64,000 bases of DNA from an uncultured Planctomycetia bacterium (GCA_964565425.1 CAZMEZ010000004.1:24907-88906); one strand, 5' to 3'. Positions 3,450 through 62,094 are shown, numbered from the stretch's first letter. Program-made: numbers and translations. The notes: generated from the sequence alone by a model not told the origin.

Positions 3450-3483
3450 CAAGATCCCGTAAAGTAGCTGTTTGAAGAGACTC

Positions 3484-3522
3484 GGGCAGAGGCCCCGCGG
3501 GCTTCTGCCCTGTCTGTTTTTT
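3484..3522 (+). terminator. Rho-independent terminator after the DUF2934 gene
   Basis: GC-rich hairpin gggcagaggcc..ggcttctgccc followed by tgtctgtttttt. Confidence 0.6.
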
Positions 3523-3542
3523 AACCGGAAAGGACGCATGTT

Positions 3543-4808
3543 ATGGCAATGCCGTCCAAAGAAGTGTTGTGCGTTATCCTCGGGGGAGGAAGAGGCTCCA
3601 GACTCTACCCCCTGACGAAGGAGAGATGCAAGCCCGCGGCGCCTCTCTTCGGGAAATACCGCCTTATAGACATACCCGTAAGTAATTGCCTTAATTCCGG
3701 GTTCAACCGGATATATATTCTCACCCAATTTCTGTCTGAATCCCTGAACAAGCATGTGAACAGGACCTACAAGATGGATCCCTTTTCGAGGGGGTTCATC
3801 GAAATAATCGCCGCAGAACAGTCGATGGAGGACACGGAATGGTTCCAGGGGACCGCCGACGCCGTGAGAAGGTGTCTTAAACACTTCAACGATCCGGCCA
3901 TAAAATACATCCTGGTTCTCTCGGGGGACCAGTTGTACAAAATGGACCTGAGGGAGATGTTCTATTATCATATTCAGAAAGAAGCCGAGGTCACGGTGGC
4001 CTGCAATCCCGTTTCAGCCGATGATGTCTCCCACTTCGGGATAATGGGGATAGGAGAGAACAATCGTATAAACAGGTTCATGGAAAAGCCCAAAGATCTG
4101 GAGCCCATAAAGGACCTGGAGATCAGAAAGGACGGAAAAAACTATTATCTCGGTTCCATGGGCATATATCTTTTCAACAAGACCACGCTTGTGGAGCTTC
4201 TCGAGAAAGACAAGAAGGTCGATTTCGGAAAAGAGATAATCCCGGAAGCGATAAAGACCAAATCGACGTCCGCGTTCCTTTTTGAGGGATACTGGCGCGA
4301 CATAGGCACGATCAAGTCTTTCTACGAAGAGAACCTCTCGCTCACGAAGGCCATACCCCCGCTCGACATGTTCGACGAGAGGTGGCTTATATTCACCAGG
4401 CCGAGATACCTTTGTCCCGCGAAATTCGAGGATAGCTGCATAGAGAGGAGTATAGTGGCGGAGGGCGCCATTATACTTTCAGCGAAGATATTACATTCCA
4501 TAATAGGCTTGAGGTTCCGAGTGAACAGCAGTTCCACCATAGAGGATACCATAGCGATGGGATCTGATTATTACGAGACGGTAGAGGAGATAGACGAAAG
4601 GGCGTCCAAAGGATTGCCCCCGCTCGGAGCGGGGAAAGACTGCCTCATAAGAAAGGCCATACTGGACAAGAACGTCAGGATAGGCGATAACGTCAGGATA
4701 ATAAACACCGAGAACAGGGAAAACTACGACGGACCGAACTATTTCATAAGGGATGGTATCGTAATAATCCCCAAGGGAGAGGTTATCCCTTCGGGGACGG
4801 TGATATAG
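3543..4808 (+). CDS. glgC: Glucose-1-phosphate adenylyltransferase
   Basis: 421 aa. Has the N-terminal LGGGRGSRLYPLT nucleotidyltransferase motif and a C-terminal left-handed beta-helix region. Sits in glycogen context with GH57. Confidence 0.85.
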   Translation: MAMPSKEVLCVILGGGRGSRLYPLTKERCKPAAPLFGKYRLIDIPVSNCLNSGFNRIYILTQFLSESLNKHVNRTYKMDPFSRGFIEIIAAEQSMEDTEWFQGTADAVRRCLKHFNDPAIKYILVLSGDQLYKMDLREMFYYHIQKEAEVTVACNPVSADDVSHFGIMGIGENNRINRFMEKPKDLEPIKDLEIRKDGKNYYLGSMGIYLFNKTTLVELLEKDKKVDFGKEIIPEAIKTKSTSAFLFEGYWRDIGTIKSFYEENLSLTKAIPPLDMFDERWLIFTRPRYLCPAKFEDSCIERSIVAEGAIILSAKILHSIIGLRFRVNSSSTIEDTIAMGSDYYETVEEIDERASKGLPPLGAGKDCLIRKAILDKNVRIGDNVRIINTENRENYDGPNYFIRDGIVIIPKGEVIPSGTVI

Positions 4809-4825
4809 CGCGATGTTGTGTGACG

Positions 4826-4922
4826 CTTTTGTCGTCCGTCGTCCGTCGTTCGAATTTCGGTACAGTTGGCACTTATCGCAGAGTGTAACACGGCATTCGG
4901 ATCCCGAACGACGAACGACGTA
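4826..4922. repeat. Heptamer-array stem-loop element (gtcgtcc x3 ... cgaacga x2, inverted)
   Basis: Left arm gtcgtccgtcgtccgtcgttcg at 4831-4852. Right arm cgaacgacgaacgacg at 4905-4920 is its reverse complement. A roughly 52-nt loop separates them. Same family as 8341-8425 and 62023-62052. Confidence 0.6.
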
Positions 4923-4936
4923 AATTAGAATAACTC

Positions 4937-5512
4937 ATGAAAATACTGGGAATTTGCGGAAGTCCGAGAAAGAACGGTAATACGGAGACGCTTCTGGACA
5001 AGGCTCTTGAAGGAGCGGCCGCGTCCGGCGCCGAGACCGAAAAGGTTACAATAAGCGATCTTGATATATCGCCCATACGCGACCGGGAGTATGAGGAAGT
5101 TAACAGTGAAGGGCTTTCCGTGGTGGAAGACGATCTGAATCTCCTGATCAAAAAGATCCAGGGAGCCGATGCCGTGATAATGGCTTCACCGGTGTTCTTC
5201 GGGAGTCTTTCAACGCAAGCCAAAATGATGATCGACCGTTTTCAGTGCGTCTGGCTCGCGAAGAACATCCTGAAAAAAGACATATTCCCGGCAAGAAAGA
5301 AGGGCGCCTTCATATGCGTGGAAGCGACGGACCGGGATGATTTTTTCCAGAACGCGAAGGCCATAATCCGGCATTTTTTCGCTACCGTGAACATCGAATA
5401 CGGAGAAGAACTTTTCTGCCCCGGGTGCGATAAAAAAGGGTCGGTGCTTAAGCGCGCCGAGTGTCTCGAAAAGGCTTCAGAGCTCGGGAAAACCCTGGCG
5501 CCCGCCGCGTAA
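4937..5512 (+). CDS. Flavodoxin-like fold NAD(P)H-dependent FMN reductase / iron-sulfur flavoprotein family
   Basis: The N-terminus MKILGICGSPRKNGNTE is typical of the NADPH-dependent FMN reductase / flavodoxin_2 family. The C-terminus has a CPGC pair. Confidence 0.6.
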   Translation: MKILGICGSPRKNGNTETLLDKALEGAAASGAETEKVTISDLDISPIRDREYEEVNSEGLSVVEDDLNLLIKKIQGADAVIMASPVFFGSLSTQAKMMIDRFQCVWLAKNILKKDIFPARKKGAFICVEATDRDDFFQNAKAIIRHFFATVNIEYGEELFCPGCDKKGSVLKRAECLEKASELGKTLAPAA

Positions 5513-5551
5513 CGACAAAAACGCTTATTTTTTAAAAACCCGAAAAGGAGC

Positions 5552-6610
5552 ATGGACCTAATAACGGGTATCATAAAAGAAGCGTATTTCCTCCTGAACA
5601 AGATGTCCCCGTACCTCTTGTTCGGTTATCTTTTTGCCGGGATACTTCACGCTTTTATAAACACGGAAACCGTCGGCCGGCATCTCGGCAGCCGTTCCTT
5701 TTTGTCCGTGATCAAAGCTTCCCTTTTCGGTATCCCGCTGCCGCTCTGTTCCTGCGGCGTATTGCCGGCAGCCGTATCCCTCAGGAAACAGGGGGCGAGC
5801 AAGGGGGCCATCCTTTCATTCCTCATATCCACGCCAACGACCGGAGTGGATTCGATATTCGCGACGTATTCACTGCTGGGCGGTTTTTTTACGGTGTACA
5901 GGGTCATTGCTTCATTTGTCGCCGGTGTCTTTTCGGGAATACTGGCCAACCTGTTCCTGGACGAGGATCCCGCCGAGGGGCGGGAGGAAGAGAAAAAATG
6001 CAAATTTTGCGGTGAATCGGCGCCGCACCATCATACCGCCGCCCACAGGATAAAAGGCATGTTCGGTTACGCTTTCGGCGAACTCCTCGAGGATTCGGGA
6101 AGCTGGATCATCATGGGCGTGTTGATAGGGGGGCTGATATCCTATTTTCTCCCGGAAGAGTTCATACATACTTATCTCGGGACGGGATGGAAGGCCATGG
6201 TCGTGATGCTCATAGTCGGCATCCCGATGTACGTGTGCGCCAGCGGATCCATACCGATCGCGGTGGCGCTCATGCTGAAAGGCATGAACCCCGGAGCGGC
6301 GTTCGTTTTTCTCCTCGCGGGCCCCGCGACTAACGCCGTGGGGATGACGGTCGTTTCAAAGCAGATGGGGAAGAGGGCCCTAGCGCTGTATCTTTCATCG
6401 ATAGTGATCTCGAGCCTGGTGCTGGGCGGCCTGCTTGACATGACCTGGAATATCTTCAATAAGGAAGGGTTGAAGCATATCATGGAACACCAGGAGTTCA
6501 TGCCGGACTGGATCGGCATAGCTTCTTCCGTTGTCCTGGCCTCGTTGATACTTTACAACATGTTCAAGGTAAGGCTGACGCGACGGAAGCGCGCGCATAT
6601 GCACAATTGA
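5552..6610 (+). CDS. Predicted permease (UPF0718/DUF318-like) with Cys/His-rich cytoplasmic loop
   Basis: Polytopic membrane protein. Has the GIPLPLCSCGVLP motif characteristic of the DUF318 permeases. The central loop CKFCGESAPHHH suggests metal binding. Confidence 0.5.
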   Translation: MDLITGIIKEAYFLLNKMSPYLLFGYLFAGILHAFINTETVGRHLGSRSFLSVIKASLFGIPLPLCSCGVLPAAVSLRKQGASKGAILSFLISTPTTGVDSIFATYSLLGGFFTVYRVIASFVAGVFSGILANLFLDEDPAEGREEEKKCKFCGESAPHHHTAAHRIKGMFGYAFGELLEDSGSWIIMGVLIGGLISYFLPEEFIHTYLGTGWKAMVVMLIVGIPMYVCASGSIPIAVALMLKGMNPGAAFVFLLAGPATNAVGMTVVSKQMGKRALALYLSSIVISSLVLGGLLDMTWNIFNKEGLKHIMEHQEFMPDWIGIASSVVLASLILYNMFKVRLTRRKRAHMHN

Positions 6611-6617
6611 ATGGGGG

Positions 6618-7139
6618 ATGGCGATGAAGGCGCTTATCGTGATGGACATGCTCAATGATTTTATCGATGAGAAGGGACCGTTGTATTGCGGCGAAGAGAG
6701 CAGGGAGATGGTCCCTTTTATCGGCAAAAAGATAGAAGAATACCGGCGTTCCGGAGATAAGGTCATCTATGTGTGCGACGCGCACGCCCCGGACGATAAG
6801 GAATTCCGTATGTTCGCCGGCCACGCCGTGAAAGGGACGAAAGGGGCGCAGGTCATTGAGGCCCTGAAGCCGGGGGCATCGGATGTGGTCATCGAGAAGA
6901 CCACGGTAAAACCTTTTTACGGGACCGGGCTGGAAAGTGCCCTTGAAGAAATAAAGCCCGAAGAGGTCGGCGTAGTGGGCGTATGCACGTCGATCTGCAT
7001 CATGGAAGTGGTGAGCGAGTTGAGGGTAAGGGGATATAAGACGGTCGTGTATCGCGAAGGCGTAGCCGATTTTGACAAAAAAGCCCATGAGTTCGCTCTC
7101 GCGCGCATGGAGAAGGTGTACGGGGCGATTGTTGAGTGA
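6618..7139 (+). CDS. Isochorismatase-family hydrolase, probable nicotinamidase
   Basis: Has the isochorismatase fold motifs: Asp in MDMLNDF, a Lys in EKTTVKPFYGT, and a Cys in VGVCTSICIME. Adjacency to a nicotinate phosphoribosyltransferase favours PncA-like function. Confidence 0.6.
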   Translation: MAMKALIVMDMLNDFIDEKGPLYCGEESREMVPFIGKKIEEYRRSGDKVIYVCDAHAPDDKEFRMFAGHAVKGTKGAQVIEALKPGASDVVIEKTTVKPFYGTGLESALEEIKPEEVGVVGVCTSICIMEVVSELRVRGYKTVVYREGVADFDKKAHEFALARMEKVYGAIVE

Positions 7140-7262
7140 TGGGTGATGAGTGATGGGCAAGGCGCTGGGCGCGAGGCGCTAGTGATAAGTGATATGTAAT
7201 ACGTGATACGTACTGGGGACTGGCAACTGGGGACTGGGGACTTTTCTTGTGACTTGCAACTA
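7140..7262. repeat. Intergenic heptamer-repeat module (gtgataN x5 then ggggact/ggcaact x4)
   Basis: gtgataagtgatatgtaatacgtgatacgtac at 7182-7213 followed by ggggactggcaactggggactggggac. The reverse complement of the ggggactggcaactgg module recurs at 59385-59415. Confidence 0.6.
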
Positions 7263-7272
7263 AAGGAACCGC

Positions 7273-8334
7273 ATGACAAAATGGCAATACGGGAAGAGAC
7301 TGAAGCCCTCGGTCTTTGATATACCCGTCAGGAAGATAAAGAGCGGGTGGTACAGCGACAAATATTTCGTCCGGACAAAAAAGATACTGGAAAAGGATAA
7401 TAATCACGCCCGGGCACTCATGCAGGTTTTCTGCAGGAAGGATGCCGTGGTATGCGGCCTTGACGAGGCCATAGCCGTACTTAAGCTTTGCGCCGGCAGG
7501 CCGAAAGAGCTCGTCATAAAGGCGCTGTACGACGGCGACAAGGTAAAGGCCGGCGATACGGTCATGACGATAGAGGGCGACTACGGCACTTTCGCGCATC
7601 TCGAAACGGTTTACCTGGGAGTAATAGCCAGACCGACCGCGGTCGCGACCGCTGTCAGAAAAGTGGTTAAGGCGGCAAAAGGGAAAAAAGTCCTGTTCTT
7701 CCCCGCCAGGTTCGATCACTACAGGGTGCAGACGACTGACGGGTATGCCGCTTTCATATCGGGCGCCCTGGGGGTGTCCACGGACGCGCAGGGCCTCTGG
7801 TGGGGGGAAAAGGGGCTGGGGACCGTGCCTCACGGGCTCATCGCGGCTTACGGCGGCGACACGGTAAAGGCCGCGGTCGCTTTCGACAAGTATATGCCGA
7901 AGGACATACAGAGGATAGTGCTCGTGGATTTCGAGAACGATTGCGTGGGGACATCGCTGGAGGTCGCCGAAGCTCTCGGCGACAGGTTGTGGGCGGTCCG
8001 GTTCGACACGGCCGAAGACGTCCGGGACGTGTCGGTCAAAGGCAAAGGAAAAGATTCGTACGGCGTGTGTCCCGAACTGGTTTTCCGGGCCAGAAAGGCC
8101 CTTGATGAACACGGTTATAAGAAAGTGAAGATAATAATCTCCAGCGGTTTTAACGAAGAAAAGATAAAAAGGTTCATAAGACTCAAGGTTCCCTTTGACG
8201 CGGTGGGCGTGGGGTCGGCCCTCATGCGCGAAAAGATAGATTTCACCGCCGACGTGGTCAAGGTCCACGGGAAGCCGCTCGCGAAGATAGGGAGGAAGTA
8301 TAATCCGAATCCGAGATTGAAGGTAGTGAGGTGA
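7273..8334 (+). CDS. Nicotinate phosphoribosyltransferase family protein (short, archaeal-type)
   Basis: 353 aa. N-terminal YSDKYF plus the NAPRTase-family barrel. The antisense ORF 7000-8268 is a shadow. Confidence 0.7.
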   Translation: MTKWQYGKRLKPSVFDIPVRKIKSGWYSDKYFVRTKKILEKDNNHARALMQVFCRKDAVVCGLDEAIAVLKLCAGRPKELVIKALYDGDKVKAGDTVMTIEGDYGTFAHLETVYLGVIARPTAVATAVRKVVKAAKGKKVLFFPARFDHYRVQTTDGYAAFISGALGVSTDAQGLWWGEKGLGTVPHGLIAAYGGDTVKAAVAFDKYMPKDIQRIVLVDFENDCVGTSLEVAEALGDRLWAVRFDTAEDVRDVSVKGKGKDSYGVCPELVFRARKALDEHGYKKVKIIISSGFNEEKIKRFIRLKVPFDAVGVGSALMREKIDFTADVVKVHGKPLAKIGRKYNPNPRLKVVR

Positions 8335-8340
8335 CGCGTG

Positions 8341-8425
8341 ACGGTTCCGTCGTTCGTCGTTCGAAATTCGGACACTAATTACAAAGCGTAATGCGATATT
8401 CGAACCCCGAACGACGGACGACTAG
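8341..8425. repeat. Heptamer-array stem-loop element (cgtcgtt x2 ... cgaacga, inverted), homologous to 4826-4922
   Basis: Arm ccgtcgttcgtcgttcg at 8347-8363 faces cgaacgacggacgac at 8408-8422. The internal motif gatattcgaaccccgaacgacg is shared with 62023-62048. Confidence 0.6.
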
Positions 8426-8433
8426 CTTGAACC

Positions 8434-9807
8434 GTGAACGAAAAAAACACGGAGCGCAACATGGAAAAAGAAAAAATAGTGCTACTGGTCGACGATGACG
8501 AGACGGTTTGCGGTCTTCTCGAGAAGATCGTGTCCCCGATGGTCGAAGAGAAGGTGGTCTGCGCTTTCACCGGCGCGGAAGCGAATAATATCATAAAGAA
8601 GAAGGAGCTCGCCCTCGCTATACTCGATTATAAGCTGCCCGATACGGACGGCATAGAACTGATGAAGAAGATAAAAGCCGTCGATAACGAAGTTCCCGTC
8701 GTAATAGTGACGGGCTTCGGCTCCATAGAGACGGGCGTCGAGGCGATCAAGCACGGCGCGTACGACTATCTTTTAAAACCTTTCCAGCCCGAGAAGATAC
8801 ACGCCCTTGTCAGGGGGCTCGTAAATTACAAGAAGCTCCGGGAGGAGAACCTTGCGCTCAGGGAAGAGCTTGGTTTGAGATACAGCATGGGGCGCCTGAT
8901 AGGTAAAAGCGAGAAGATACGCAAGATCTACGACCAGATCCCGAACCTCGTGAATACCGATTCGACGGTCCTCATACAGGGAGAAAGCGGAACGGGAAAA
9001 GAACTGCTCGCGAGGGCCATTCACTCTAATTCGCCGCGCAAGGACAAGCCTTTTGTCGTAGCCGACTGCACGGCGCTTGCCGAGAGTCTGCTGGAAAGCG
9101 AGCTCTTCGGGCACGAGAAAGGGTCGTTCACGGGGGCCATACGCCAGAAGATCGGGAGGTTCGAACAGGCGGATGGCGGGACGATATTCCTGGACGAGAT
9201 AGGCGATATCTCCGCGGCGGCGCAACTTAAGCTGCTCAGGGTACTCCAGGAGATGACCTTTGAAAGGGTCGGGGGCGAAGAGACCATAAAGGTCGACGTA
9301 CGCGTAATAGCCGCGACGAACAAAGACCTGGACAGGCTCATGCAGGAAGGCAAGTTCCGGGAAGACCTGTTCTACCGTCTCAGCGTTATACCCGTATACA
9401 TGCCGCCGCTTCGTGAACGAAAGGTGGATATACCGTCGCTTGCCAGGTGTTTCGTTGACCAGTTCGCGGTAAAGAACGCGAAAAAGATAGAGAACATTTC
9501 CGACGACGCGTTCAGGCTGCTTATGGATCATGACTGGCCGGGCAACATACGCGAGCTCGAGAACGCCATGGAGAGGGCGGTTGTCGTAGCCCGTGGGAAC
9601 ATTATCCAGGAAGAGGACCTTCCGCCGAAAATATACAAGCAGCCGACAGGTGCCCCGGCGAGCAGTAATTCCCTTAAGGAGAACGAGAAATTCCTGATAA
9701 GCAGGGTGCTTGCTGAATGCGGTAACAACATGCTCAAGGCCGCCAAAGAACTCGGCATTTCCCGATCCACGCTTTACGGTAAGATGAAGAAGCTGGGGAT
9801 AAGATAG
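8434..9807 (+). CDS. Sigma-54-dependent two-component response regulator (NtrC/Fis family)
   Basis: Receiver domain (LLVDDDE..D), AAA+ sigma-54 activator domain (GESGTGKE, GAFTGA) and a C-terminal Fis-type helix-turn-helix. Confidence 0.85.
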   Translation: MNEKNTERNMEKEKIVLLVDDDETVCGLLEKIVSPMVEEKVVCAFTGAEANNIIKKKELALAILDYKLPDTDGIELMKKIKAVDNEVPVVIVTGFGSIETGVEAIKHGAYDYLLKPFQPEKIHALVRGLVNYKKLREENLALREELGLRYSMGRLIGKSEKIRKIYDQIPNLVNTDSTVLIQGESGTGKELLARAIHSNSPRKDKPFVVADCTALAESLLESELFGHEKGSFTGAIRQKIGRFEQADGGTIFLDEIGDISAAAQLKLLRVLQEMTFERVGGEETIKVDVRVIAATNKDLDRLMQEGKFREDLFYRLSVIPVYMPPLRERKVDIPSLARCFVDQFAVKNAKKIENISDDAFRLLMDHDWPGNIRELENAMERAVVVARGNIIQEEDLPPKIYKQPTGAPASSNSLKENEKFLISRVLAECGNNMLKAAKELGISRSTLYGKMKKLGIR

Positions 9808-9825
9808 GCGTGAGTCGTAGGTCTT

Positions 9826-9890
9826 GAGTGTATTCGTATTGCGTCGTGCGTATTGCGTGATGCGTATTGCGAACGTAATTATTGATTAAT
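9826..9890. repeat. Heptamer tandem array (tattgcg-type, about 7 units)
   Basis: gtattcg tattgcg tcgtgcg tattgcg tgatgcg tattgcg aacgtaa, directly after the activator gene stop. Confidence 0.55.
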
Positions 9891-10251
9891 AGTTATTGGT
9901 TATGACAGATTGCCGCGTCGCTTCGCTCCTCGCAATGACAGAAGAGGGCGACCCCAACTATTTACCATTCACGCCCTCCCTGCTCAGGCCATCCAATCCT
10001 CCCAAAACTGTACGAAAATCATACAATACCCGCCATATAGCTGTATTTCGTAATATGTTTTAAATAAAGCACTTACGAATGCATAGTGATTCATTGTGTC
10101 CGAAATGCGCACATAGCACTTTATCAGACATTTTTCGTCGAATTTACCTTCAAAAGATCTCTTCCGTTACGGAATTCACGATTTAATCCATTTAGTTTAA
10201 ACCATTTATAACAATTAATAATGCGTGAGTTTTAGGCCGGTATCTTCACTT

Positions 10252-10267
10252 TGGCACGGTTGTTGCA
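10252..10267 (+). promoter_or_regulatory. Sigma-54 (-24/-12) promoter
   Basis: TGGCAC at 10252-10257, exactly 5 nt, then TTGCA at 10263-10267. Lies about 55 nt upstream of the ATG at 10322. Located in a 514-bp AT-rich non-coding region between the sigma-54 activator gene and the transglutaminase-like gene, with rpoN next downstream. Confidence 0.7.
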
Positions 10268-10321
10268 ACTTTATATAAGTTGAAGCAATGGAACGGTCTT
10301 TAAAAGGAAAGAGGTGACAAG

Positions 10322-10822
10322 ATGAAGATAACGGTTTACAAAATATTAATATTCACGGTGATCGCGATGGTCATGTTGAACGTAACGGCCGACGATATCC
10401 ACTCACAGGGCATCGGTTCCGCGCCTTATGCAGTCACAACGCCGAATGAACTCGCCGAATGGATGGAAAAAGATTTCAGGTATTGCCTGACTTTTCCCGA
10501 CAGGTGGCAAACCCCTGAAGAGACCATGGAGGCAGGATCAGGCGACTGCGAGGATTTTGCCACTCTCGCTTCATATGTTCTTGACCATATCGGCGTGTCC
10601 AACGAAATACTGATCGTAAAGTTCAAGGGAACGGACGCGGGGCACGTGATATGCATATGGAGAGAAACAGACGGAAGTTTCAGCTATATTTCGAACCGGA
10701 AATTGTACCGCACCGGTGAAACGGATATTAAAAAAGCGATAGAAAGGTATTACCCGGAATGGGAAAGCGCTATCCTGACGGACGGGGAAGGGATAAAACT
10801 GGGAATGATGGCCCGAGAATAA
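10322..10822 (+). CDS. Secreted transglutaminase-like cysteine peptidase superfamily protein
   Basis: N-terminal signal/anchor (KILIFTVIAMVML). Catalytic-triad-like spacing with Cys in GDCEDFA, His in AGHVICIW and a downstream Asp. AAGGAAAGAGG ribosome-binding site. Confidence 0.55.
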   Translation: MKITVYKILIFTVIAMVMLNVTADDIHSQGIGSAPYAVTTPNELAEWMEKDFRYCLTFPDRWQTPEETMEAGSGDCEDFATLASYVLDHIGVSNEILIVKFKGTDAGHVICIWRETDGSFSYISNRKLYRTGETDIKKAIERYYPEWESAILTDGEGIKLGMMARE

Positions 10823-10850
10823 AAGAACACGGAAAGTCCATCGGCAGTAA

Positions 10851-10883
10851 AAAAGCCGGGCATGGCAGTGTCCGGCTTTTTTG
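10851..10883 (+). terminator. Rho-independent terminator after the transglutaminase-like gene
   Basis: Hairpin gccgggcatggcagtgtccggc followed by tttttt. Confidence 0.65.
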
Positions 10884-10971
10884 TATTGACGGCCCGAAAC
10901 GGATTTTGACATAATGATTCCAGGACGGGAGAAATTTCCGGTCCGGAACCTTTGCAAAAGGAGCCGATCTT

Positions 10972-12336
10972 ATGCCGGCGGATTACGGTATGGAAAGAAG
11001 CATGAGGCAGGTCCAGTATCTGTCCCAGCAGGCCCGGATAACGGTGCATATACTTCAGCTGCCCCTTCTTGAGCTGAGAGAGTACCTCGCGCGGGAACTG
11101 ACGGAAAATCCCATGCTCGAAGGAGACGAAGGGGAGCGGGACAGGGAGAACGTGGAGGATATCGAAAGCGCCAAAGAATACGACTTCATAACGAGAAGGT
11201 CGGGTGTTTACGACGAAGAAAGAGAAGAGAAGCGCAGGTACAGGGAAGCGCAGATAACCAAAGAAGAGACCCTCGAAGATCACCTCTTGTGGCAGCTGGA
11301 CATGTCCACCGAAGAAATAGATCACGGGATAGGGGAAGAGATTATAGGGGATCTTGACCGTAACGGATATCTCAGGTCCGATACCCGACGGATCGCCGAG
11401 AAGTTCTATGTTCCGCTCGAAAAGGTGGAGGAAATTTTGTTCCTGATCCAGGGGCTCCACCCGGCAGGGGTAGGGGCCAGGGACCTTAGGGAATGCCTTC
11501 TCGCGCAGCTGAGATCACAGGGCAAGGAAGATACCCTCGGTTACCGGATAGTGGAAACATGCCTTAAGGACCTTGAAAAAGGGGACGATGCGAGTCTCGC
11601 AAAAAAGCTTCGCGTAAAACAGGAAGATGTCGTGAAGGCCAGACAACTGATAAATTCGCTGGAACCCAAACCGGGAAGGATGTTCGCGCCCGGAGAAAGC
11701 GTTTGGGCCGTTCCGGATATAATTATCGAAAGGAAAGACGACAGGTTCAGCGTCAGCCTGAACGAACGGTTCCTGCCGAAACTGCGCCTGAGCTCTTATT
11801 ACTTAAAACTTCTGAAGGGCAAGAACGCGGATGATGATGTAAAGGGTTTTCTGGAAGAGAGGAAGACCAGGGCCCAGTGGGTGATAGAGGCGATCCTGCA
11901 AAGACGGGATACGATAAAGAAGGTCGCGGAATACATAGTGAATGTGCAGAAGGATTTTCTTGATGATCCGTGGGGCAGCGTCAAACCGCTTAAAATGGAA
12001 GAGATCGCCGAGGACCTGGGTGTAAGCAAATCGACAGTGAGCAGGGCGGTCGCGAAAAAATATGTCCAAACGGAATACGGGCTCCTGCCGCTCAAGCGTT
12101 TTTTCAGCACGGCATTGGCCGGGGAGAAGGGAGAAGATCTTTCGGCCGATCTTGTGAAGAAGAAGATCGGCGAAATGATCGCCGATGAAGACAAGCGAAC
12201 GCCGTTAAGCGATGCGGATATAGCCGGGCGGTTGGAAAAGGACGGGATAAACATAGCCCGCAGGACCGTGGCTAAATACCGCGAAGGATTGGGGATAGCC
12301 GCTCGTGGCCGAAGACGGAAAAAGCGGAAGGGCTGA
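10972..12336 (+). CDS. rpoN: RNA polymerase sigma-54 factor
   Basis: N-terminal Q/L-rich region I (LSQQARITVHILQLPLLEL). C-terminal RpoN box ARRTVAKYRE and a helix-turn-helix. The true start may be a downstream Met (MERSMRQ). Confidence 0.85.
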   Translation: MPADYGMERSMRQVQYLSQQARITVHILQLPLLELREYLARELTENPMLEGDEGERDRENVEDIESAKEYDFITRRSGVYDEEREEKRRYREAQITKEETLEDHLLWQLDMSTEEIDHGIGEEIIGDLDRNGYLRSDTRRIAEKFYVPLEKVEEILFLIQGLHPAGVGARDLRECLLAQLRSQGKEDTLGYRIVETCLKDLEKGDDASLAKKLRVKQEDVVKARQLINSLEPKPGRMFAPGESVWAVPDIIIERKDDRFSVSLNERFLPKLRLSSYYLKLLKGKNADDDVKGFLEERKTRAQWVIEAILQRRDTIKKVAEYIVNVQKDFLDDPWGSVKPLKMEEIAEDLGVSKSTVSRAVAKKYVQTEYGLLPLKRFFSTALAGEKGEDLSADLVKKKIGEMIADEDKRTPLSDADIAGRLEKDGINIARRTVAKYREGLGIAARGRRRKKRKG

Positions 12337-12423
12337 TACGGCCGTTGTATCTCTTTCGCTCTTGTGTTAAAATAATCACCTGCCATTCGGCCATTTCACG
12401 AAGAACATACACGGAGGCATAAT

Positions 12424-13926: not shown

Positions 13927-13961
13927 GGATATAGGCCGTTTTGGCGGTCATGAAGCATTAA

Positions 13962-13997
13962 AGAGGGGCACACGGTATTTCAGGCGCCCCTCTTTTG
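13962..13997 (+). terminator. Probable rho-independent terminator
   Basis: agaggggc..gcccctct hairpin followed by ttt(g). The T-run is short. Confidence 0.45.
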
Positions 13998-14032
13998 ACA
14001 TTTGACGTTGAATAACAGGATCCGGAGAACGC

Positions 14033-14956: not shown

Positions 14957-15075
14957 AAGACCCCCATCCTGATTGGCCATGACCCTACCCTAATGTATCC
15001 TTACTGGGCGACCAATATTCCTCCTTTTGATTATTTAACAAAAAGCGCTTCCAAAAACCCTATCCAAAAAACAAA

Positions 15076-15104
15076 TTGACAGTATCTTATGTATTTACTA
15101 TAAT
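15076..15104 (+). promoter_or_regulatory. Sigma70 promoter (TTGACA-17-TATAAT) that should give a leaderless mRNA for the MarR-like gene
   Basis: TTGACA at 15076-15081, a 17-nt spacer, TATAAT at 15099-15104. The ATG at 15113 is only 8 nt downstream and has no Shine-Dalgarno sequence. Confidence 0.6.
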
Positions 15105-15112
15105 ACTGTTCA

Positions 15113-24484: not shown

Positions 24485-25243
24485 ATGCGCGCAGTGAAAA
24501 TAATTTTTCTTGGGACCAACGGATGGTACACGACTGAGACGGGGAATACCACGTGTGTTTTCATGGAAACGAAGGATAACTATATAGTCCTCGACGCGGG
24601 GAACGGCATTTACCGGCTTGACGAGTATGTGAAGAGCGTCGATAAACCGATCTACGTTTTCCTGAGCCATTTCCACCTGGACCATATAAGCGGGCTTCAC
24701 ATCCTGGCCAAGTTCAGATTTCCCCAGGGCATGACCATATGCGGGCACAGGGGAACAAGGGAGATCCTTGATGGTATCATGCGGCAACCGTTCACGGTCC
24801 CGCTCGAAGATATTCCTTTCAAGATCGAGGTAAAGGAAATCGAAGAAGGGGTCGCCTCGGCCTTTCCGTTCCACGTTGAGGCGCGAGAGGTCCCGCATTC
24901 CTCGATGTGCCTGGCCTACAGGTTCGAAGTAGAGGGCAGGATAGTGACGTATTGCACCGACGCGGGGTATTGCCGGGCGGCGGTAGAGTTGGCCCGGGAC
25001 TCGAACGTGCTCATAGCCGAGTGCACGTTGAAGCCCGGCGAGAAGAACGAGAAATGGCCGCATCTTAATCCCGCGGACTCCGCGAGGATCGCGCAAGAAG
25101 CGGGAGCGGAGAAACTCGTGCTCATGCATTTTGACGCCGACAATTACCGGAGCATTTATGACAGGGAAAAAGCCCAGGCCGTGGCGGAGAAGGTTTTTAA
25201 GAACACAACGGCTGCCAGGGACGGAATGGTGGTGGAGCTGTAG
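24485..25243 (+). CDS. MBL-fold metallo-hydrolase
   Basis: HFHLDHISGLH metal-binding motif. Confidence 0.65.
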   Translation: MRAVKIIFLGTNGWYTTETGNTTCVFMETKDNYIVLDAGNGIYRLDEYVKSVDKPIYVFLSHFHLDHISGLHILAKFRFPQGMTICGHRGTREILDGIMRQPFTVPLEDIPFKIEVKEIEEGVASAFPFHVEAREVPHSSMCLAYRFEVEGRIVTYCTDAGYCRAAVELARDSNVLIAECTLKPGEKNEKWPHLNPADSARIAQEAGAEKLVLMHFDADNYRSIYDREKAQAVAEKVFKNTTAARDGMVVEL

Positions 25244-25586
25244 AGAGATCGCATAGCGCAAAGCGCATAGCGGTTCGCGATGTGCGGTTAGCGGGTCGAG
25301 AAAGTAAATAATAAGTGATACGTGATACGCAGGCTAGAGGCACGAGGCTAGAGGCACGAGGCTAGAGGCAAGAGGCAAGAGGCAAGAGGCGAAAGAAAGG
25401 CGTTGATTACGAAGATTAAGACGCAGACGATGATCTTAGATTACGAAGATCTGATCCCCGTAATCTATTTAAATCTTCGTAATCAAATTATATAGTACGC
25501 GTTATCTGTGATCATCTGTTTTAAATCTGTGCTCATCCGTGTTTTAAGGAAAAACGAACGACGAACGGCGAACAACGGACGACGAT
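25244..25586. repeat. Composite intergenic heptamer-repeat element (343 bp)
   Basis: In order: agcgcat-type heptamers; gtgatacgtgatacg; nine ggcNNga heptamers (ggctaga/ggcacga/ggcaaga) at 25332-25394; an inverted pair gattacgaagat ... atcttcgtaatc at 25405-25483; and gtgatcatctgttttaa plus cgaacga heptamers at 25507-25586. Homologous to 47702-47868, 59384-59700 and 61343-61700. Confidence 0.7.
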
Positions 25587-27050
25587 ATGAAAAATAACAT
25601 GCGGGTTTATATAGTTACCGAAGGGGGCGAGGGTATCGGTTACGGACACGTAACGAGGTGCCTCTCGCTTTGCCAGGCTTTTGAAGGGGAGGGCATCTCT
25701 CCGATATTCATAATAAACGGGGATAAAAGCATTAAGAATATCATCGGCGGAAGGGACTGCGTGACGTTCAACTGGCTTAAAGAGGGGGAAAAGCTGCTGA
25801 AGATCATCGATGGTTCGGATATAACGATAATAGATTCCTATAAAGCGAGCCGCGCCATCTACGCGAAAATATCGGAACTGGCGCTTTTACCGGTCTTTCT
25901 GGACGATTACAAGAGAATAGACTATCCGGAAGGGGTCGTGCTGAACGGAGGCATCCACGCCGAAAGCCTTGCGTACCCCAGGAAAAGGGGGAAGACATAT
26001 CTTCTCGGCGCGAAATACGCTCTTTTGAGAAAAGACTACTGGAAGACCTCCGGCAAGAAGATCAGGAAGAGCGTTGAAAAGATACTCGTTACGTTCGGGG
26101 GGAGCGATACGGATAACTTTACCGCCGAGGTTCTTAAAGCGCTGGACGAGGCGTATCCGGAGATATCAAGAACGGCGGTTATAGGAAAGGCGTCCGGTAC
26201 GTCGCCCGTGGCAGGAAGGGCCGCGGGAGGCGGTACGCGGTTCGTTTTTGACGCGGATGCCGCGGAGATGAAGAAGGTCATGATGGAGGCCGATATCGCT
26301 GTCGCCGCCGCCGGACAAACCACATATGAACTTGCGGCGGTAGGTGTGCCCACGGTCGCGGTCTGCGTTGCCCCGAACCAGAAAATGAACCTTGTGAACT
26401 GGATGGAAAAAGGGTTTCGCGGCTGCGCGCTTGCCGGTCGCAGGATCCCGAAGGAGAAGGTCCTCGAAGGCGTGGAGTATTTTCTGCCTTACAAGAATAG
26501 AAGCGAATTTTATAAGAGCACCAGAGATCTTGTTTCCGCCGACGGGGCGCGCAACGCCGTAAAAGAACTGCTTGGCGCGTACGGTTCCGTTAAATTGAGA
26601 GGGGTCAAAAGGGACGATTGCCGTGATCTCTGGATATGGCGAAACCATCCCAGGGCGAGAAAATGGAGTTTTTGCCATGACGCGATAAGTTATCCCGACC
26701 ACGAAAAGTGGTTCGCCAAAAAGCTCGGGGATAGAAGGGCGCGGATATATATCGCTGAAGACATCCGCGGCCGAAAGATCGGGCAGGCGCGTTTTGAGGT
26801 GTTTCCCTCGAGCGCGATGATCAGCGTGAACCTGAACCCCATGTTCTACGGCAGGGGGTTCGGTTCAAAGGTAATAGAGGGCGCGACCCGGACCTTTCTC
26901 GAAGAAAGGCCGCAGGTAAAAGAGATAACGGCCGAGGTAAACGCGGCGAACATAGCGTCGATCAAGGCCTTTAAAAGAGCCGGATACGAGTTCTCGTCAA
27001 AGGAGCGGAAAGCCGGCGAGAACGCCGATATCTTCAAGTACAGGACCTAA
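25587..27050 (+). CDS. Bifunctional PseG-like UDP-2,4-diacetamido-2,4,6-trideoxy-beta-L-altropyranose hydrolase / GNAT N-acetyltransferase (PseH-like) fusion
   Basis: N-terminal GT-B-like PseG domain (GEGIGYGHVTRCLSL). C-terminal GNAT fold (about 26600-27050). Confidence 0.7.
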   Translation: MKNNMRVYIVTEGGEGIGYGHVTRCLSLCQAFEGEGISPIFIINGDKSIKNIIGGRDCVTFNWLKEGEKLLKIIDGSDITIIDSYKASRAIYAKISELALLPVFLDDYKRIDYPEGVVLNGGIHAESLAYPRKRGKTYLLGAKYALLRKDYWKTSGKKIRKSVEKILVTFGGSDTDNFTAEVLKALDEAYPEISRTAVIGKASGTSPVAGRAAGGGTRFVFDADAAEMKKVMMEADIAVAAAGQTTYELAAVGVPTVAVCVAPNQKMNLVNWMEKGFRGCALAGRRIPKEKVLEGVEYFLPYKNRSEFYKSTRDLVSADGARNAVKELLGAYGSVKLRGVKRDDCRDLWIWRNHPRARKWSFCHDAISYPDHEKWFAKKLGDRRARIYIAEDIRGRKIGQARFEVFPSSAMISVNLNPMFYGRGFGSKVIEGATRTFLEERPQVKEITAEVNAANIASIKAFKRAGYEFSSKERKAGENADIFKYRT

Positions 27051-46660: not shown

Positions 46661-47701
46661 ATGAACATAGAAAATCTGATAGACAGCCCGTTGAAAAAGG
46701 AAGGGGATATATGGTACGGCCCCGAGGGCGGGTACTGGTCCAACCTGGAGAGGTCCAAGAGTGAGATCTATCTGAAGGACCTGGAGGCCCTGGGTTCGAT
46801 GGAGACCATGAAAAAATATTTTCCGCAGCACGGGGACGTCATTTCCCTGAAAAGGATGGGCGGGGCCGCGACACTTGACCTTGCCCCGGGCGAAAAGGTG
46901 CTTGACGCGGGTTGCATGTGGGGAGCGCTCGCGGTGCCGCTTGCCAGGACACGGGCGGAGGTCATTGCGGTCGACCAGACCAGGGAAAGCATGCTGTTCC
47001 TGGCCAAAAGAAAGGAAGAAGAGGCCCTGGAGAACCTGCACCTGGTGTGCGGCGACCTGAAGGAAATAAAATTCAGGGAGAAGATTTTCGATAAAGTGAT
47101 CGTGAACGGCGTGCTGGAATGGGTCCCCGAAACGCAAACGGTCGAGGTGGGGAATTTTATCAGGCGGAAAAATCCTTTCCTCGAGAACCTGAAACTCCTC
47201 TTCTCGAAGCGGGAGAGAAAGGATTCCCCGAGGGAAAAACAGCGTCGTTTCCTGGGTAAGATACAAAGGGCGCTCAAGGATGACGGCACCCTTTACCTGG
47301 CGATAGAGAACAGGTACGATGTTTTTTATTTCTTCGGTATTCCCGAACCGCATTGCGGGATCAGGTTCATTTCGCTCTTGCCGCGGTGGGCGCAGGACAT
47401 CCTGTCGCTGCTCCTCAGGGGGAGGAGGTTCAGGTTGTGGACTTATTCGAAAAAGGAACTGGAGGACCTGTTGCGCGCGTCCGGGTTCTCGAAAATAAAG
47501 TTCCATTACGCTTTTCCGGATTATAAGGAACCGGAGCAGGTCTTGACGGATGAAGGGATGGAACTCTTCAGGTATTGCAAATCCGCGGGAGATAAGCCGT
47601 TCTATAAAAAGGCCGTCCTGCGGTTTATCGAGGAAGTCGTGTTCAAAAGGATGAAACTGACGTTCTTCGCGCCGAGCTTTATCGTGCACGCGGAGAAGTG
47701 A
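46661..47701 (+). CDS. Class I SAM-dependent methyltransferase
   Basis: VLDAGCMWGALA motif I. Start trimmed to the ATG after the upstream stop. The antisense ORF 46496-47689 is a shadow. Confidence 0.65.
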   Translation: MNIENLIDSPLKKEGDIWYGPEGGYWSNLERSKSEIYLKDLEALGSMETMKKYFPQHGDVISLKRMGGAATLDLAPGEKVLDAGCMWGALAVPLARTRAEVIAVDQTRESMLFLAKRKEEEALENLHLVCGDLKEIKFREKIFDKVIVNGVLEWVPETQTVEVGNFIRRKNPFLENLKLLFSKRERKDSPREKQRRFLGKIQRALKDDGTLYLAIENRYDVFYFFGIPEPHCGIRFISLLPRWAQDILSLLLRGRRFRLWTYSKKELEDLLRASGFSKIKFHYAFPDYKEPEQVLTDEGMELFRYCKSAGDKPFYKKAVLRFIEEVVFKRMKLTFFAPSFIVHAEK

Positions 47702-47868
47702 TAAGCAATAAGTGATAGGTGATAGGTAATACGTGGGCGAAAGGCTAGAGGCGAAATTGATTACGAAGATTTTGAAGTAGACGATAATCTTAGATTACGA
47801 AGATGTAATCTCCGCGATCTCATTTAAATCTCGTAATCAACGAAAAACGAATAACGCAATACGAATTT
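47702..47868. repeat. Composite intergenic heptamer-repeat element
   Basis: taagcaa/taagtga/taggtga heptamers, ggc-aga heptamers, then gaaattgattacgaagattttgaagtagacgataatcttagattacgaagatgtaatctccgcgatctcatttaaatctcgtaatcaac. Near-identical to 61585-61680. Confidence 0.7.
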
Positions 47869-55760: not shown

Positions 55761-55811
55761 AATTTCGAAGCTGTTATATATTACGGGGGGAATTATTTTT
55801 GGCGGAGGGCC

Positions 55812-55840
55812 TTTAACTTTTTAAAATTAACGGTATAATA
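55812..55840 (+). promoter_or_regulatory. Possible AT-rich sigma70-type promoter upstream of the oxidoreductase gene
   Basis: TATAAT at 55835-55840 with a weak -35 (tttaac) 17 nt upstream. Lies in the only sizable non-repeat intergenic gap of the 3' half of the glycan locus. Confidence 0.3.
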
Positions 55841-55872
55841 AAACATCAAAAAAAAAGAAAAAGGAGAGTGGC

Positions 55873-58184: not shown

Positions 58185-59383
58185 CAGGAAACGCGCTCGT
58201 CGCGCTGAAGAAAAGAGTAATGCCCGAAGAGGCGCCTTACAGATATTTTATTATCTCCGGTATATTTTTTTTCGTGTTCCTTTGCGGGCTCCATTTCGCG
58301 TCGGGACGTTCCCTGTGGCTGGACGAAAGGTCCATACTTGAGAACATCACGATGCTCCAGCCGCATGAACTTCTGGGTCCATTGAGGCATTCCCAGGCAT
58401 TTCCGCATCTTTACCTCTTTGCCGTGCAGAGCGTCTCAAGAGTCTTTGATTACAGCGTTTACAGTCTTCGGGTGATACCCTTTATATTGATGTTATGCGC
58501 ATTCTATACCTGGCTGCGCCTTTTTAAAAAGGAAGAAGGCGCGGGCCTGAACTATACGCTTTTTATCCTTGCCTGGTGCGGTTCACACCTAATGTCGTAT
58601 TACGCGGCTGAACTGAAACAGTATTCAGGGGACGTCCTCATCGCGGCGCTTTTCTCCATTTTTATACTGGATCAAAGAGAACAGCTGAGAGATCAGGAGA
58701 TACGTCCTTTATCGGCGCTTAAATATCTCGCGATGCCCGCGCTGGTGCTTTTGTCCTACACGGCGAATTTTTTCGTCCTGATCCCTTTGTATAATCTCAT
58801 TTTAAGTATAAAGGGTAACCGGAAGAACGTCCTGTATGCCTGTATCTATTTCGTATCCACGGCCGCGTTCATGAGCGTGTCCTATTTTTATGACGCCAGG
58901 CACGCCCGGGTGGTGGAAGATTTCCCCGTTTACTGGAATGATTATTTTATATTAACCGGTTCCTTCCCCGAATTCATACAGTCTTTCAGCGAGGGGTTCA
59001 GGAACGTTTTCGTAAGGTGGTTCGTAGAGACAAGCCTGGTTCGGCGCGTAATGACGATATTCCTCCCTTTCGCGGTCTATTTTCTGGCGGTACCGGGGTA
59101 CAGGCGCTTCAGGGAGGATAAGTTCAGGTTGTTGTCATTAAGGACCATTATCCCCGCCGTTCTTATCGGCATGATGATCGCGGGAGTCCTCAAATATTAT
59201 CCCTTTACGGGGACAAGAGTTACGCTTTTCATAGCCCCGTTTATCTTCTATTCCATAATAAAGGGGATGGAGACCGTCAAGCCAAGATTCCCTCTGGCCT
59301 ATAAAGGGCTGGTATCCGTGTACGTTCTTACCCTGATCTCCACGTCGGTGTACGTGACGCTCAGGTATCTTGCGTTATATTAG
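58181..59383 (+). CDS. Polytopic membrane protein, possible GT-C-fold glycosyltransferase
   Basis: Start at the ATG overlapping the upstream stop. Ten or more predicted transmembrane segments. The WLDE motif in the first loop is reminiscent of ArnT/PMT-type lipid-linked-sugar transferases. Confidence 0.4.
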   Translation: MTGNALVALKKRVMPEEAPYRYFIISGIFFFVFLCGLHFASGRSLWLDERSILENITMLQPHELLGPLRHSQAFPHLYLFAVQSVSRVFDYSVYSLRVIPFILMLCAFYTWLRLFKKEEGAGLNYTLFILAWCGSHLMSYYAAELKQYSGDVLIAALFSIFILDQREQLRDQEIRPLSALKYLAMPALVLLSYTANFFVLIPLYNLILSIKGNRKNVLYACIYFVSTAAFMSVSYFYDARHARVVEDFPVYWNDYFILTGSFPEFIQSFSEGFRNVFVRWFVETSLVRRVMTIFLPFAVYFLAVPGYRRFREDKFRLLSLRTIIPAVLIGMMIAGVLKYYPFTGTRVTLFIAPFIFYSIIKGMETVKPRFPLAYKGLVSVYVLTLISTSVYVTLRYLALY

Positions 59384-59800
59384 TCCCTGGTTTCCAGTTG
59401 CCAGTCCCCGGTAAAATTCACAAGATACCAGATACTAGATACAAACTTCATTCCCGCTACTCATCACCTATCGCGTATTATGTATTACTTACTTTGTACG
59501 TCCCTTTAGCCCCTCGCCTTTAGCCTCGTTACTCGTCGTTCGTTTTTCGTCGTTCGTCGTTCGTTGTTCGTTAAAACACGGATGATCACTGATATTGCGT
59601 ATTACGTGAGTTGATCGCGGAGATTTAAATGGGATTACGGAGATTACATCTTCGTAATCTAAAAGAGGGTGTCAAACTGCAAATCTTCGTAATCAACGCC
59701 TTTCTTCCGCCTTTATCCTTTAACCTTTATCCTTTAACCTTTATCCTTTAACCTTTATCCTTTAACCTTCATCCTTGCCTCATTGCCCTGCGCCAAGCCC
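59384..59800. repeat. Composite heptamer-repeat element containing the left arm of a roughly 165-bp inverted repeat (59503-59666) and a 14-nt x4 tandem array (59710-59765)
   Basis: 59385-59415 is the reverse complement of the ggggactggcaactgg module at 7215-7241. 59503-59666 is the near-exact reverse complement of 61418-61590. cctttatcctttaa repeated four times lies at 59710-59765. Confidence 0.75.
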
Positions 59801-59929
59801 CATGCTCCATACCTGTCCGCTGGACGCCGGACGCTGCCCGCTGAACTAAACCGTTGCATCAAATCCCCATTAGCGATAAACTATTATAATATTGCTTATG
59901 GCACAAACATATGTAAACGGCAGGAAGAG

Positions 59930-61342: not shown

Positions 61343-61700
61343 GGGTATCGCATAGCGCTAAGCGCATAGCGGGTTAAGTGATGCGTGATACGCAGGCTAA
61401 AGGCAAGAGGCGAAATTGATTACGAAGATGTAATCTCCGTAATCCCATTTAAATCTCCGCGATCAACTCACGTAATACGCAATATCAGTGATCATCTGTG
61501 TTTTAACGAACAACGAACGACGAACGACGAACGACGAAAAACGAACGACGAGTAACGAGGCGAAAGGCTAAAGGCGAGGGGCTAGAGGCGAAATTGATTA
61601 CGAAGATTTTGAAGTAGACGATAATCTTAGATCGCGAAGATCCGATCTCCGTAATCCCATTTAAATCTCCGCGATCAACATAATGAACCCAAGACCCAAG
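61343..61700. repeat. Composite heptamer-repeat element containing the right arm of the inverted repeat (61418-61590) and a second gattacgaagat module (61590-61680)
   Basis: Begins atcgcatagcgctaagcgcatagcgg, as does 25245. 61418-61590 mirrors 59503-59666 with one extra acgacga unit. 61590-61680 is near-identical to 47750-47845. Confidence 0.75.
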
Positions 61701-61704
61701 ACTA

Positions 61705-61962: not shown

Positions 61963-62094
61963 TGAGGCGAAGGTTAAAGGTTAAAGGTTAAAGGGCCCGA
62001 TAAACCGGGCAACTACGGTTTACGATATTCGAACCCCGAACGACGAACGATGGATTACGACTCACGATTCACGACTTACGATTCACGATCATAA
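61963..62094. repeat. Heptamer/nonamer repeat element (ggttaaagg x3, cgaacga units, ttcacga x5)
   Basis: ggttaaaggttaaaggttaaagg at 61970-61993 is the complement-orientation relative of the ccttta[t/a] array at 59710. cgatattcgaaccccgaacgacgaacga is shared with 8392-8420. attacgactcacgattcacgacttacgattcacgatc lies at 62054-62090. Confidence 0.65.

Follow-up and report, generated by a model that had tools for sequence, protein, structure and literature searches.

What are the repeats that occupy so many of the spaces between genes in a 64,000-nucleotide (nt) stretch of DNA listed under an uncultured Planctomycetia bacterium (GCA_964565425.1 CAZMEZ010000004.1:24907-88906), how might they have arisen, and what could they do there? 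The whole of this stretch, at its full length, is called the window here. Its spacer at 25,244 to 25,586 holds one example of these repeats, which we describe as cassettes. They are mosaics of three types of part, namely tandem arrays of 7-nt units (heptamers), an 84-nt palindromic core and a hairpin element that we name H. We suggest, with some confidence, that they are probably fast-evolving dispersed repeats, akin to the short tandemly repeated repetitive sequences (STRR) and long simple sequence repeats (SSR), which originate by slippage and recombination and have an effect on the downstream mRNA and its translation. The best named matches of RpoN (10972-12336) and of a nicotinate phosphoribosyltransferase-like protein (NaPRT, 7273-8334) are to Candidatus Omnitrophota or Omnitrophica, and by its sequence the window appears to come from a Candidatus Omnitrophota metagenome-assembled genome (MAG).

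A period of seven nucleotides in the spacers

The initial annotation of this DNA described nine spacers as runs of 7-nt units. Pooled over these nine, the identity of the sequence with itself is 0.477 at a lag of 7 nt and still 0.425 and 0.353 at lags of 14 and 21, with the remaining lags at about 0.24-0.28. This is highly significant against 300 dinucleotide-preserving shuffles, in which the mean lag-7 identity was 0.262 (standard deviation 0.010, maximum 0.289). The whole 64-kb window gives a lag-7 value of only 0.251, that is, no signal. A sliding scan of the window found 16 segments with at least 16 of 21 lag-7 matches, compared with none in Markov shuffles, and the equivalent scan at lags 5, 6 and 8-12 gave no segment over the window. 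All 16 strong segments lie in spacers between genes that are supported by Pfam or NCBIfam, one of them starting within the last codons of a gene.

Tandem Repeats Finder returned more than 30 rows for the window with a period of 7, 14 or 21, and the arrays of more than 2.3 copies all fall within the nine regions. Together with the lag-7 peak, this defines a repeat unit of exactly 7 nt, arranged head to tail. The arrays have 2-10 units, a length of 16-70 nt and a unit match of 72-100%. Arrays were found in all nine of the regions first described, as was every heptamer quoted for them. An assembly artefact was considered and is unlikely: the arrays are just 16-70 nt long, and those of a sister species recur in two separate assemblies (JGI, Logan).

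Of some 17 window spacers that reach 50 nt, about 9 have arrays. The earlier statement that nearly every operon boundary has such an element is right in that many boundaries do, but it goes too far, since only about half of these spacers are occupied. The spacers at 710-903, 3450-3542, 10823-10971, 12337-12423, 13927-14032, 14957-15112 and 55761-55872 are free of arrays and have lag-7 identities of 0.18-0.29, except for 0.39 in the last. This spacer was rejected as a further array, because its raised value stems from an A-rich, promoter-like tract.

Module order, polarity and palindromes

The unit families that recur among spacers are GTGATAN, AGGCNAG (with its relative AAGGNTA), CGAACGA, CGCATAG, ACTGGGG, GTATTGC, GATTCAC, AGATACC and ACCCAAG. 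Within the window the CGAACGA, GTGATAC and AGGCAAG families are each found in 3-7 spacers. There is a recurrent order on the 3' side of the stop codon, which runs CGCATAG, GTGATAN, AGGCNAG, core, a 21-nt module, CGAACGA and then the start codon. This mosaic structure, with the same families recurring from spacer to spacer, supports the earlier proposal that the units combine as interchangeable modules.

The cassettes have also been duplicated and rearranged. Cassettes A (25240-25590) and D1 (61338-61565) are homologous over their whole length, with three insertions or deletions of module size between them. Cassette C is an inverted copy, and together with D1 it forms a 157-nt inverted repeat (59503-59659 and 61418-61574, 90% complementary) that brackets a gene for an exopolysaccharide priming glycosylphosphotransferase (59930-61342). 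Recombination between these arms would invert the gene. The suggestion in the initial annotation that such elements are sites of recombination or slippage is supported by both the module-sized differences and the inverted duplication.

The core, which is absent from the initial annotation, is an 84-nt palindrome with five copies in 64 kb. It is built from a 12-nt motif that occurs four times, twice forward (GATTACGAAGAT) and twice in reverse (ATCTCCGYRATC), and it folds as a nested hairpin. Its terminal inverted repeats are perfect in copy A (TTGATTACGAAGAT ... ATCTTCGTAATCAA) and have 1-3 mismatches in the other copies, and an AGGCGAA unit stands directly 5' of the core in every copy. On the strand antisense to copies A and B the core has the better fold, since A-C mismatches become G-U pairs there. 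We rejected this as evidence for an antisense RNA, since the difference rests on just 1-2 positions. No true copy of the core is present among the loci compared, and there were no matches in the GTDB representative genomes or in IMG/VR. Ten matches in JGI metagenomes were discarded as AT-rich chance matches with no heptamers nearby.

Element H has arms made of inverted CGTCGTT and CGAACGA arrays and a partly conserved centre, the latter having been missed at first. The prediction that inverted pairs of arrays form stem-loops is well founded: the pair at 4831-4852 and 4905-4920, and its twin at 8335-8433, fold into stems of about 18-20 bp with z-scores of -1.8 to -4.1.

The cassettes are polar. 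Each family has its purine-rich reading on the coding strand; the exceptions are cassette C, which is inverted, and the hairpins' 5' arms. The stop-bearing units (GTGATAN and CGCATAG) begin at or over the upstream stop codon (7137, 47699 and 61960), and three of them provide all frames with a stop, 7 and 3 being coprime. The window's genes are nearly all on the + strand, and over 1-62835 the supported ones are so without exception, an unusually long run of co-directional genes. GC skew stays between +0.07 and +0.18 here, and AT skew is also positive apart from roughly the final 8 kb.

At the other end of the cassettes, the five starts that are abutted by arrays (4937, 8434, 25587, 61705 and 62095) all lack a Shine-Dalgarno (SD) match longer than 3 nt, compared with 8 of 51 other genes (Fisher p = 3.4e-4). 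For at least three of the five, Pfam domain boundaries support the position of the start. The orthologues of the flavin mononucleotide (FMN) reductase gene show the same arrangement. In the three array-free relatives the ATG is preceded by GGAG, GGGGG or GGAGG, and in the three array-bearing genomes by a (CGAACNA)n array with no SD. The coordinates of the modules are collected in Table 1.

Table 1. Heptamer arrays, core copies and H elements in the window (x, number of units)
Feature	Coordinates	Strand	Remarks
Hairpin element H1	4824-4925	+	5' arm (CGTCGTY)n 4824-4861; 3' arm (CGAACGA)n 4897-4925; centre about 40 nt; ends 12 nt before ATG 4937
GTGATGG x3 array	7126-7160	+	includes TGA stop of gene 6618-7139
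AGGCGCT x3.3 array	7160-7182	+	
GTGATAC x4.3 array	7182-7211	+	
ACTGGGG x4.4 array	7212-7242	+	Nostoc GGGGACT unit; STRR1 CCCCAGT on the other strand
Hairpin element H2	8340-8428	+	CGTCGTT and CGAACGR arms; conserved centre and right arm CGATATTCGAACCCCGAACGACG; ends 6 nt before GTG 8434
GTATTGC x6 array	9830-9871	+	shortly 3' of stop of gene 8434-9807
CGCATAG x3.3 array	25250-25272	+	opening module of cassette A
GTGATAC x2.7 array	25311-25329	+	
AGGCNAG x8.6 array	25331-25390	+	ggctaga, ggcacga, ggcaaga
Core copy A	25403-25486	+	two forward GATTACGAAGAT and two reverse ATCYYCGTAATC; outer 14-nt arms perfectly complementary
21-nt module ATCTGTGATCATCYGTGTTTTAA	25504-25547	+	two copies; single copy in cassettes C and D1
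CGAACGA x4.6 array	25554-25585	+	abuts ATG 25587; no SD
GTGATAG x~5, then AGGCNAA x~2.5	47696-47756	+	includes TGA stop 47699-47701
Core copy B	47757-47840	+	
AACGAAN x3.9 array	47839-47866	+	degenerate CGAACGA type
Inverted cassette C, part 3' of core C on - strand	59384-59573	-	ACTGGNN, AGATACC x2.9, AGGC-type units, CGAACGA x~6.8
Core copy C	59611-59696	-	orientation opposite to the other four
CCTTTAW x9.6 array	59710-59776	+	AAGGNTA on - strand
Start of cassette D1	61349-61415	+	CGCATAG x3.3, GTGATRC, AGGCNAG x3
Core copy D1, short form	61416-61466	+	lacks 34 nt between the two forward motifs
CGAACGA x6.6, then AGGCGAA x5.1	61506-61593	+	
Core copy D2	61594-61678	+	
ACCCAAG x2.3 array	61687-61702	+	abuts ATG 61705 of GIY-YIG open reading frame (ORF)
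GTGATRG x2, then AAGGTTA x3.6	61955-61994	+	GTGATRG array includes TGA stop of GIY-YIG ORF
Right half of H element, ATTCGAACCCCGAACGACGAACGA	62023-62050	+	
GATTCAC x5.4 array	62053-62089	+	abuts ATG 62095

Several cassettes lie within an exopolysaccharide/glycosyltransferase cluster (47.9-62.8 kb). Others stand between housekeeping genes, including glgC, the FMN reductase gene, an isochorismatase-family gene, the NaPRT gene and an ntrC-like gene.

Relatives, origin and possible effect

Syntenic loci of relatives were obtained by way of the NaPRT gene. The closest is a sister species (L130/L131), whose NaPRT has 93% protein identity and whose flanking coding DNA is about 86% identical to that of the window. 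It has arrays in the same spacers, made of other units: a GTGTCAT/ACACATG hairpin, GGTGACG, AAGGATA, GTGATAG, GCCCGTT/AACGGGC, CTTGTGA and CTGGCAA. A copy of H is present in its orthologous spacer between glgC and the FMN reductase gene (L130), and H is thus common to the window and the sister species, where the GTGTCAT/ACACATG hairpin is likewise dispersed, with a second locus on L138. Other arrays (AAGCGGT, CGAACCA) are found in L134/L135 (NaPRT 88%). There are none in L132/L133 (89%) or L136/L137 (87%), where the spacer upstream of NaPRT is 19 nt and 34 nt, respectively, and none in L001 (RpoN 59%). These different arrays, or none, in orthologous spacers show that the kind of element and part of its unit repertoire are common to close relatives, that the trait is patchy among related Omnitrophota, and that turnover of what a given spacer contains outpaces the divergence of the flanking genes.

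Gene content at these loci also differs. A hypothetical gene of 252-260 amino acids (aa) lies between glgC and the FMN reductase gene in three relatives (L132:7002-7760, L134:6427-7188 and L136:8088-8870). It is missing in the window (4809-4936) and in L130, where the H hairpin fills the spacer.

In the glycosyltransferase cluster of the window, an 85-aa stand-alone GIY-YIG nuclease ORF (61705-61962, Pfam 2e-19) stands between two cassettes. Its orthologue in the sister species (L138) is 84% identical and has a different neighbourhood, 3' of a Cupin_2 gene; a heptamer hairpin precedes it and a CGCATAG module follows. A further motif, GATTGCCGCGTCGCTTCGCTCCTCGCAATGAC, is found at 9905-9940 in the 9808-10321 spacer, and a related motif in the other orientation (GTCATTGCGAGGCCCGAAGGGCCGAAGCAA) lies 3' of the GIY-YIG gene at L138:960-1000, where the gene caller read through (110 rather than 85 aa). 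Presumably this motif resembles a widespread small repeat that is often beside GIY-YIG genes.

There is a practical side to these repeats, in that they break assemblies and mislead gene callers. At L134:7233-7883 the FMN reductase was called from a GTG within an array, the true start (MKVLGICGSP) being about 85 nt further on. In the window, the listed start of ORF 59783-61342 is a TTG (59783), the likely one being the ATG at 59930. Another ORF extended through heptamer arrays is P0242.

Beyond the relatives, we scanned one genome per GTDB species for (CGAACGA)3. It is present in at least 117 stretches from Acidobacteriota, Chloroflexota, Planctomycetota, Actinomycetota, Bacteroidota, Geobacteraceae, two other Omnitrophota MAGs and more. 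Among the matches listed, 42 of 117 loci have at least three period-7 arrays, including further units, within the 8-kb neighbourhood, and for 28 of 120 arrays there is a TCGTTCG partner in inverted orientation no more than 200 nt away, which is the architecture of H. A bias in the order of the arms of these pairs (pyrimidine-rich first in 19, purine-rich first in 9) was set aside, since it is not significant and some pairs were counted from both strands. In 15 of 95 of the arrays listed, an ORF of at least 150 codons starts no more than 10 nt 3' of the array with no SD between, compared with 5 of 95 in the opposite orientation (p = 0.03, with crude ORF calling). The loss of the SD where a CGAACGA-type array abuts the start, seen in the window, in the orthologues and weakly in other phyla, provides a concrete hypothesis that is testable in a model host. 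The pattern agrees with the translational role that has been proposed for TAACTGA repeats (PMC4679880).

How might such cassettes come about? In the reading that we prefer, arrays would grow, shrink and vanish through slipped-strand mispairing in steps of 7 nt and through recombination between direct repeats, and their survival would be limited to spacers, as reading frames do not tolerate a period of 7 nt. The copying of whole cassettes to several spacers may have gone by transposition of a non-autonomous element or by gene conversion. They would be transcribed as polar intercistronic parts of co-directional operons, and CGAACGA-type arrays at the downstream start codon could take the place of the SD. 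Given the stop-bearing units at the stop codon and the CGAACGA-type arrays at the start, the cassettes most likely modulate mRNA folding, mRNA stability and downstream translation initiation. They are unlikely to be promoters or intrinsic terminators.

Several points weigh against this reading. Transcription of the cassettes, and their function, are what we infer from sequence. The SD result is post hoc and comes from five window genes plus one set of orthologues, and the cross-phylum comparison, with its crude ORF calling and p = 0.03, supports it weakly. The directions of transcription and replication are inseparable here because all flanking genes are on the purine-rich + strand. Slippage was not seen directly: no change in unit number was found between strains, but L130/L131 are 100% identical and L134/L135 99.99%, and because they are near-identical this comparison is uninformative on copy-number variation. 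On inspection of its flanks, the core showed neither a transposase nor a target-site duplication, and nothing else that would point to active transposition. With no further copy of the core in any of the three collections searched, there is no way to trace how it spread.

The alternative that survives best, though we regard it as rather unlikely, is that the cassettes, or at least the core and the hairpins, are non-autonomous elements of the type of miniature inverted-repeat transposable elements (MITE) or paired, hairpin-forming repetitive extragenic palindromes (REPIN), moved by an enzyme encoded elsewhere, with the arrays as landing sites or co-travellers. The 14-nt perfect terminal inverted repeats of core copy A, the five copies in 64 kb and their constant place directly 3' of AGGCGAA are what such an element would look like. 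Whole cassettes occur at unrelated loci in both orientations, dispersed hairpin elements are a feature of the window as well as of the sister species, and the stand-alone GIY-YIG gene is flanked by cassettes in both species despite its different gene neighbourhoods. However, there are no transposase genes in the window and no visible target-site duplication: the flanks of the five core copies share no direct repeat, and only copy B has CGAAA on both sides. The core is also without a match in GTDB representatives, JGI metagenomes and IMG/VR. As for the GIY-YIG gene, its distant homologues (L139 and L140) have no adjoining arrays, and cassette flanking of any small gene is expected by chance because cassettes fill so many spacers.

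A regulatory signal within the cassettes was sought in several ways. Rfam gave no match at the gathering score anywhere in the window, and at E <= 1 (59350-62130 and 4780-10330) the elements remained without one. The window has no tRNA or tmRNA. Counts of sigma-70-like promoters in the elements are at the shuffle level. The sole match to the sigma-54 consensus, a perfect one, is TGGCACGGTTGTTGCA at 10252-10267 in the spacer 9891-10321, about 380 nt downstream of the nearest array. It is 55 nt upstream of a transglutaminase-like gene (10322-10822), which is directly upstream of rpoN and downstream of an NtrC-type activator gene (8434-9807). Both spacers that resemble true promoter regions, this one and 55761-55872 (A-rich, with TATAAT), are free of arrays.

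A role of the hairpin-forming inverted arrays in terminating or insulating transcription between co-directional operons, as the initial annotation proposed, is in our view very improbable. Stable stems are indeed present shortly 3' of stop codons (-37 to -40 kcal/mol, z down to -4), and the heptamer repeats of Xanthomonas likewise cluster within 50 bp of stop codons (PMC4692102). Yet the stems have no T-tract, no intrinsic terminator (a GC-rich stem with a T-tract) was found on the elements, and terminator-like sites are at the shuffle level. Many arrays have no inverted partner, and the same genes are contiguous in L132 and L136 with spacers of 19-34 nt. In addition, the hairpins end 6-12 nt before the next start, which fits translational control better.

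The least probable account is that the arrays are slipped-strand contingency loci, in which unit number alters promoter spacing or switches surface-polysaccharide genes: tandem repeats are a classical slippage substrate, several cassettes lie in the exopolysaccharide/glycosyltransferase cluster and copies of one cassette vary in unit number, but the arrays are short and degenerate, which lowers slippage rates, sigma-70-like promoters are not enriched, the sigma-54 site is far from any array, cassettes also stand between housekeeping genes and near-identical strains have no length change. The phase variation through promoter spacing that was first suggested is not supported, the elements having no promoter signal. 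We consider all three alternatives less likely than slippage-born cassettes with an effect on mRNA and translation, and for contingency loci and terminators the evidence against is direct, though incomplete.

A broader proposal joins several of these elements, and we put it forward only as a speculative and quite improbable one. Heptamer cassettes could be a polar intercistronic expression module across bacteria, with stop units on the 5' side, a hairpin, and (CGAACGA)n on the 3' side as a leader for SD-independent initiation, spread by a trans-acting enzyme for which the small GIY-YIG nuclease is a candidate. Were this true, the excess of heptamer repeats in bacteria would acquire a function as well as a mechanism of mobility.

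Comparison with known repeats

To our knowledge, no function of heptanucleotide repeats has been established and no reason for their 7-nt period, even though STRR have been known since 1990. In that year Mazel et al. reportedly described the units CCCCAGT, TTGGTCA and CAACAGT, and Elhai is said to have reported in 2008 that small mobile repeats are embedded in the heptamer arrays of Nostoc. Our literature search found no description of heptamer cassettes in Omnitrophota. The initial annotation was aware of no equivalent in sigma-54-using lineages other than cyanobacteria, and the premise that cyanobacteria stand alone in this is refuted by the literature on Xanthomonas, Geobacter, Beggiatoaceae and Bacteroidetes as well as by the at least 117 stretches with (CGAACGA)3. 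Heptamers are the over-represented class of long SSR in many bacteria, according to Mrazek 2007 as cited in PMC4679880 and PMC4692102.

The likeness to the cyanobacterial STRR that the initial annotation saw is real. Both have 7-nt units in short tandem arrays in spacers between co-directional ORFs and near stop codons. STRR have several dispersed families per genome, the window likewise has several families that each recur in a number of its spacers, and one unit (GGGGACT/ACTGGGG, 7212-7242) is identical to a heptamer of Nostoc PCC 7120. In the strict sense, the host is not a heterocystous cyanobacterium, as the matches of its RpoN and NaPRT to Omnitrophota indicate. The ACTGGGG array is the reverse complement of the STRR unit CCCCAGT (PMC4692102), and every other array in the window has another unit. 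Most units here (CGAACGA, GTGATAN, AGGCNAG and CGCATAG), the recurrent order of arrays and the 84-nt palindromic core differ from STRR.

The Xanthomonas GGGAATC and Nostoc GGGGA(C/T)T repeats are found between aligned ORFs, within 50 bp of the stop codon or overlapping it, with about four units, often as inverted pairs, and they are transcribed (PMC4692102). The Xanthomonas repeats (Rehm et al. 2015, PMC4692102) resemble the present arrays in being intergenic, in having typically about four units, in forming inverted stem-loop pairs and in lying at or over stop codons. In both, species keep the position but differ in length and sequence. However, Xanthomonas has a single G-rich unit with G-quadruplex potential, whereas there are many units here, mostly not G-quadruplex-forming.

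The TAACTGA repeats are located 5' of start codons in Beggiatoaceae, cyanobacteria and Bacteroidetes (MacGregor 2015, PMC4679880). Like the arrays of the window, they can stand directly 5' of starts without canonical ribosome-binding sites, their phylogenetic distribution is patchy, and in some genomes they are mixed with other heptamer arrays. They differ in the unit, BOGUAY (the draft genome of an orange Guaymas 'Maribeggiatoa') has essentially one unit, and no palindromic core or hairpin element is described (PMC4679880). In Geobacter metallireducens, heptanucleotide multicopy elements (GGACCGG x4 and MTYCTGA x5) are similar in being dispersed elements of 4-5 tandem heptamers that are missing in a close relative (PMC2700814). 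The differences are that the GGACCGG family also occurs inside genes, that the units are others and that no mosaic cassettes are described there.

Finally, the bacterial interspersed mosaic elements (BIME), repetitive extragenic palindromes (REP) and REPIN of Enterobacteria and Pseudomonas share with the cassettes a mosaic of palindromic units and linkers, a position between co-directional genes, hairpins in mRNA and a multi-copy nature. There is no sequence relationship, REP are palindromes of about 35 nt, and no REP-associated tyrosine transposase (RAYT) was seen in the window. Compared with all of these, the cassettes are a known type of repeat in a new phylum, not a new class. Their added interest lies in the lineage-specific core and in the link to starts without an SD. 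The locus thus adds the Omnitrophota to the phyla with such repeats, with an unusually clear modular grammar of arrays and comparative evidence of very fast turnover.

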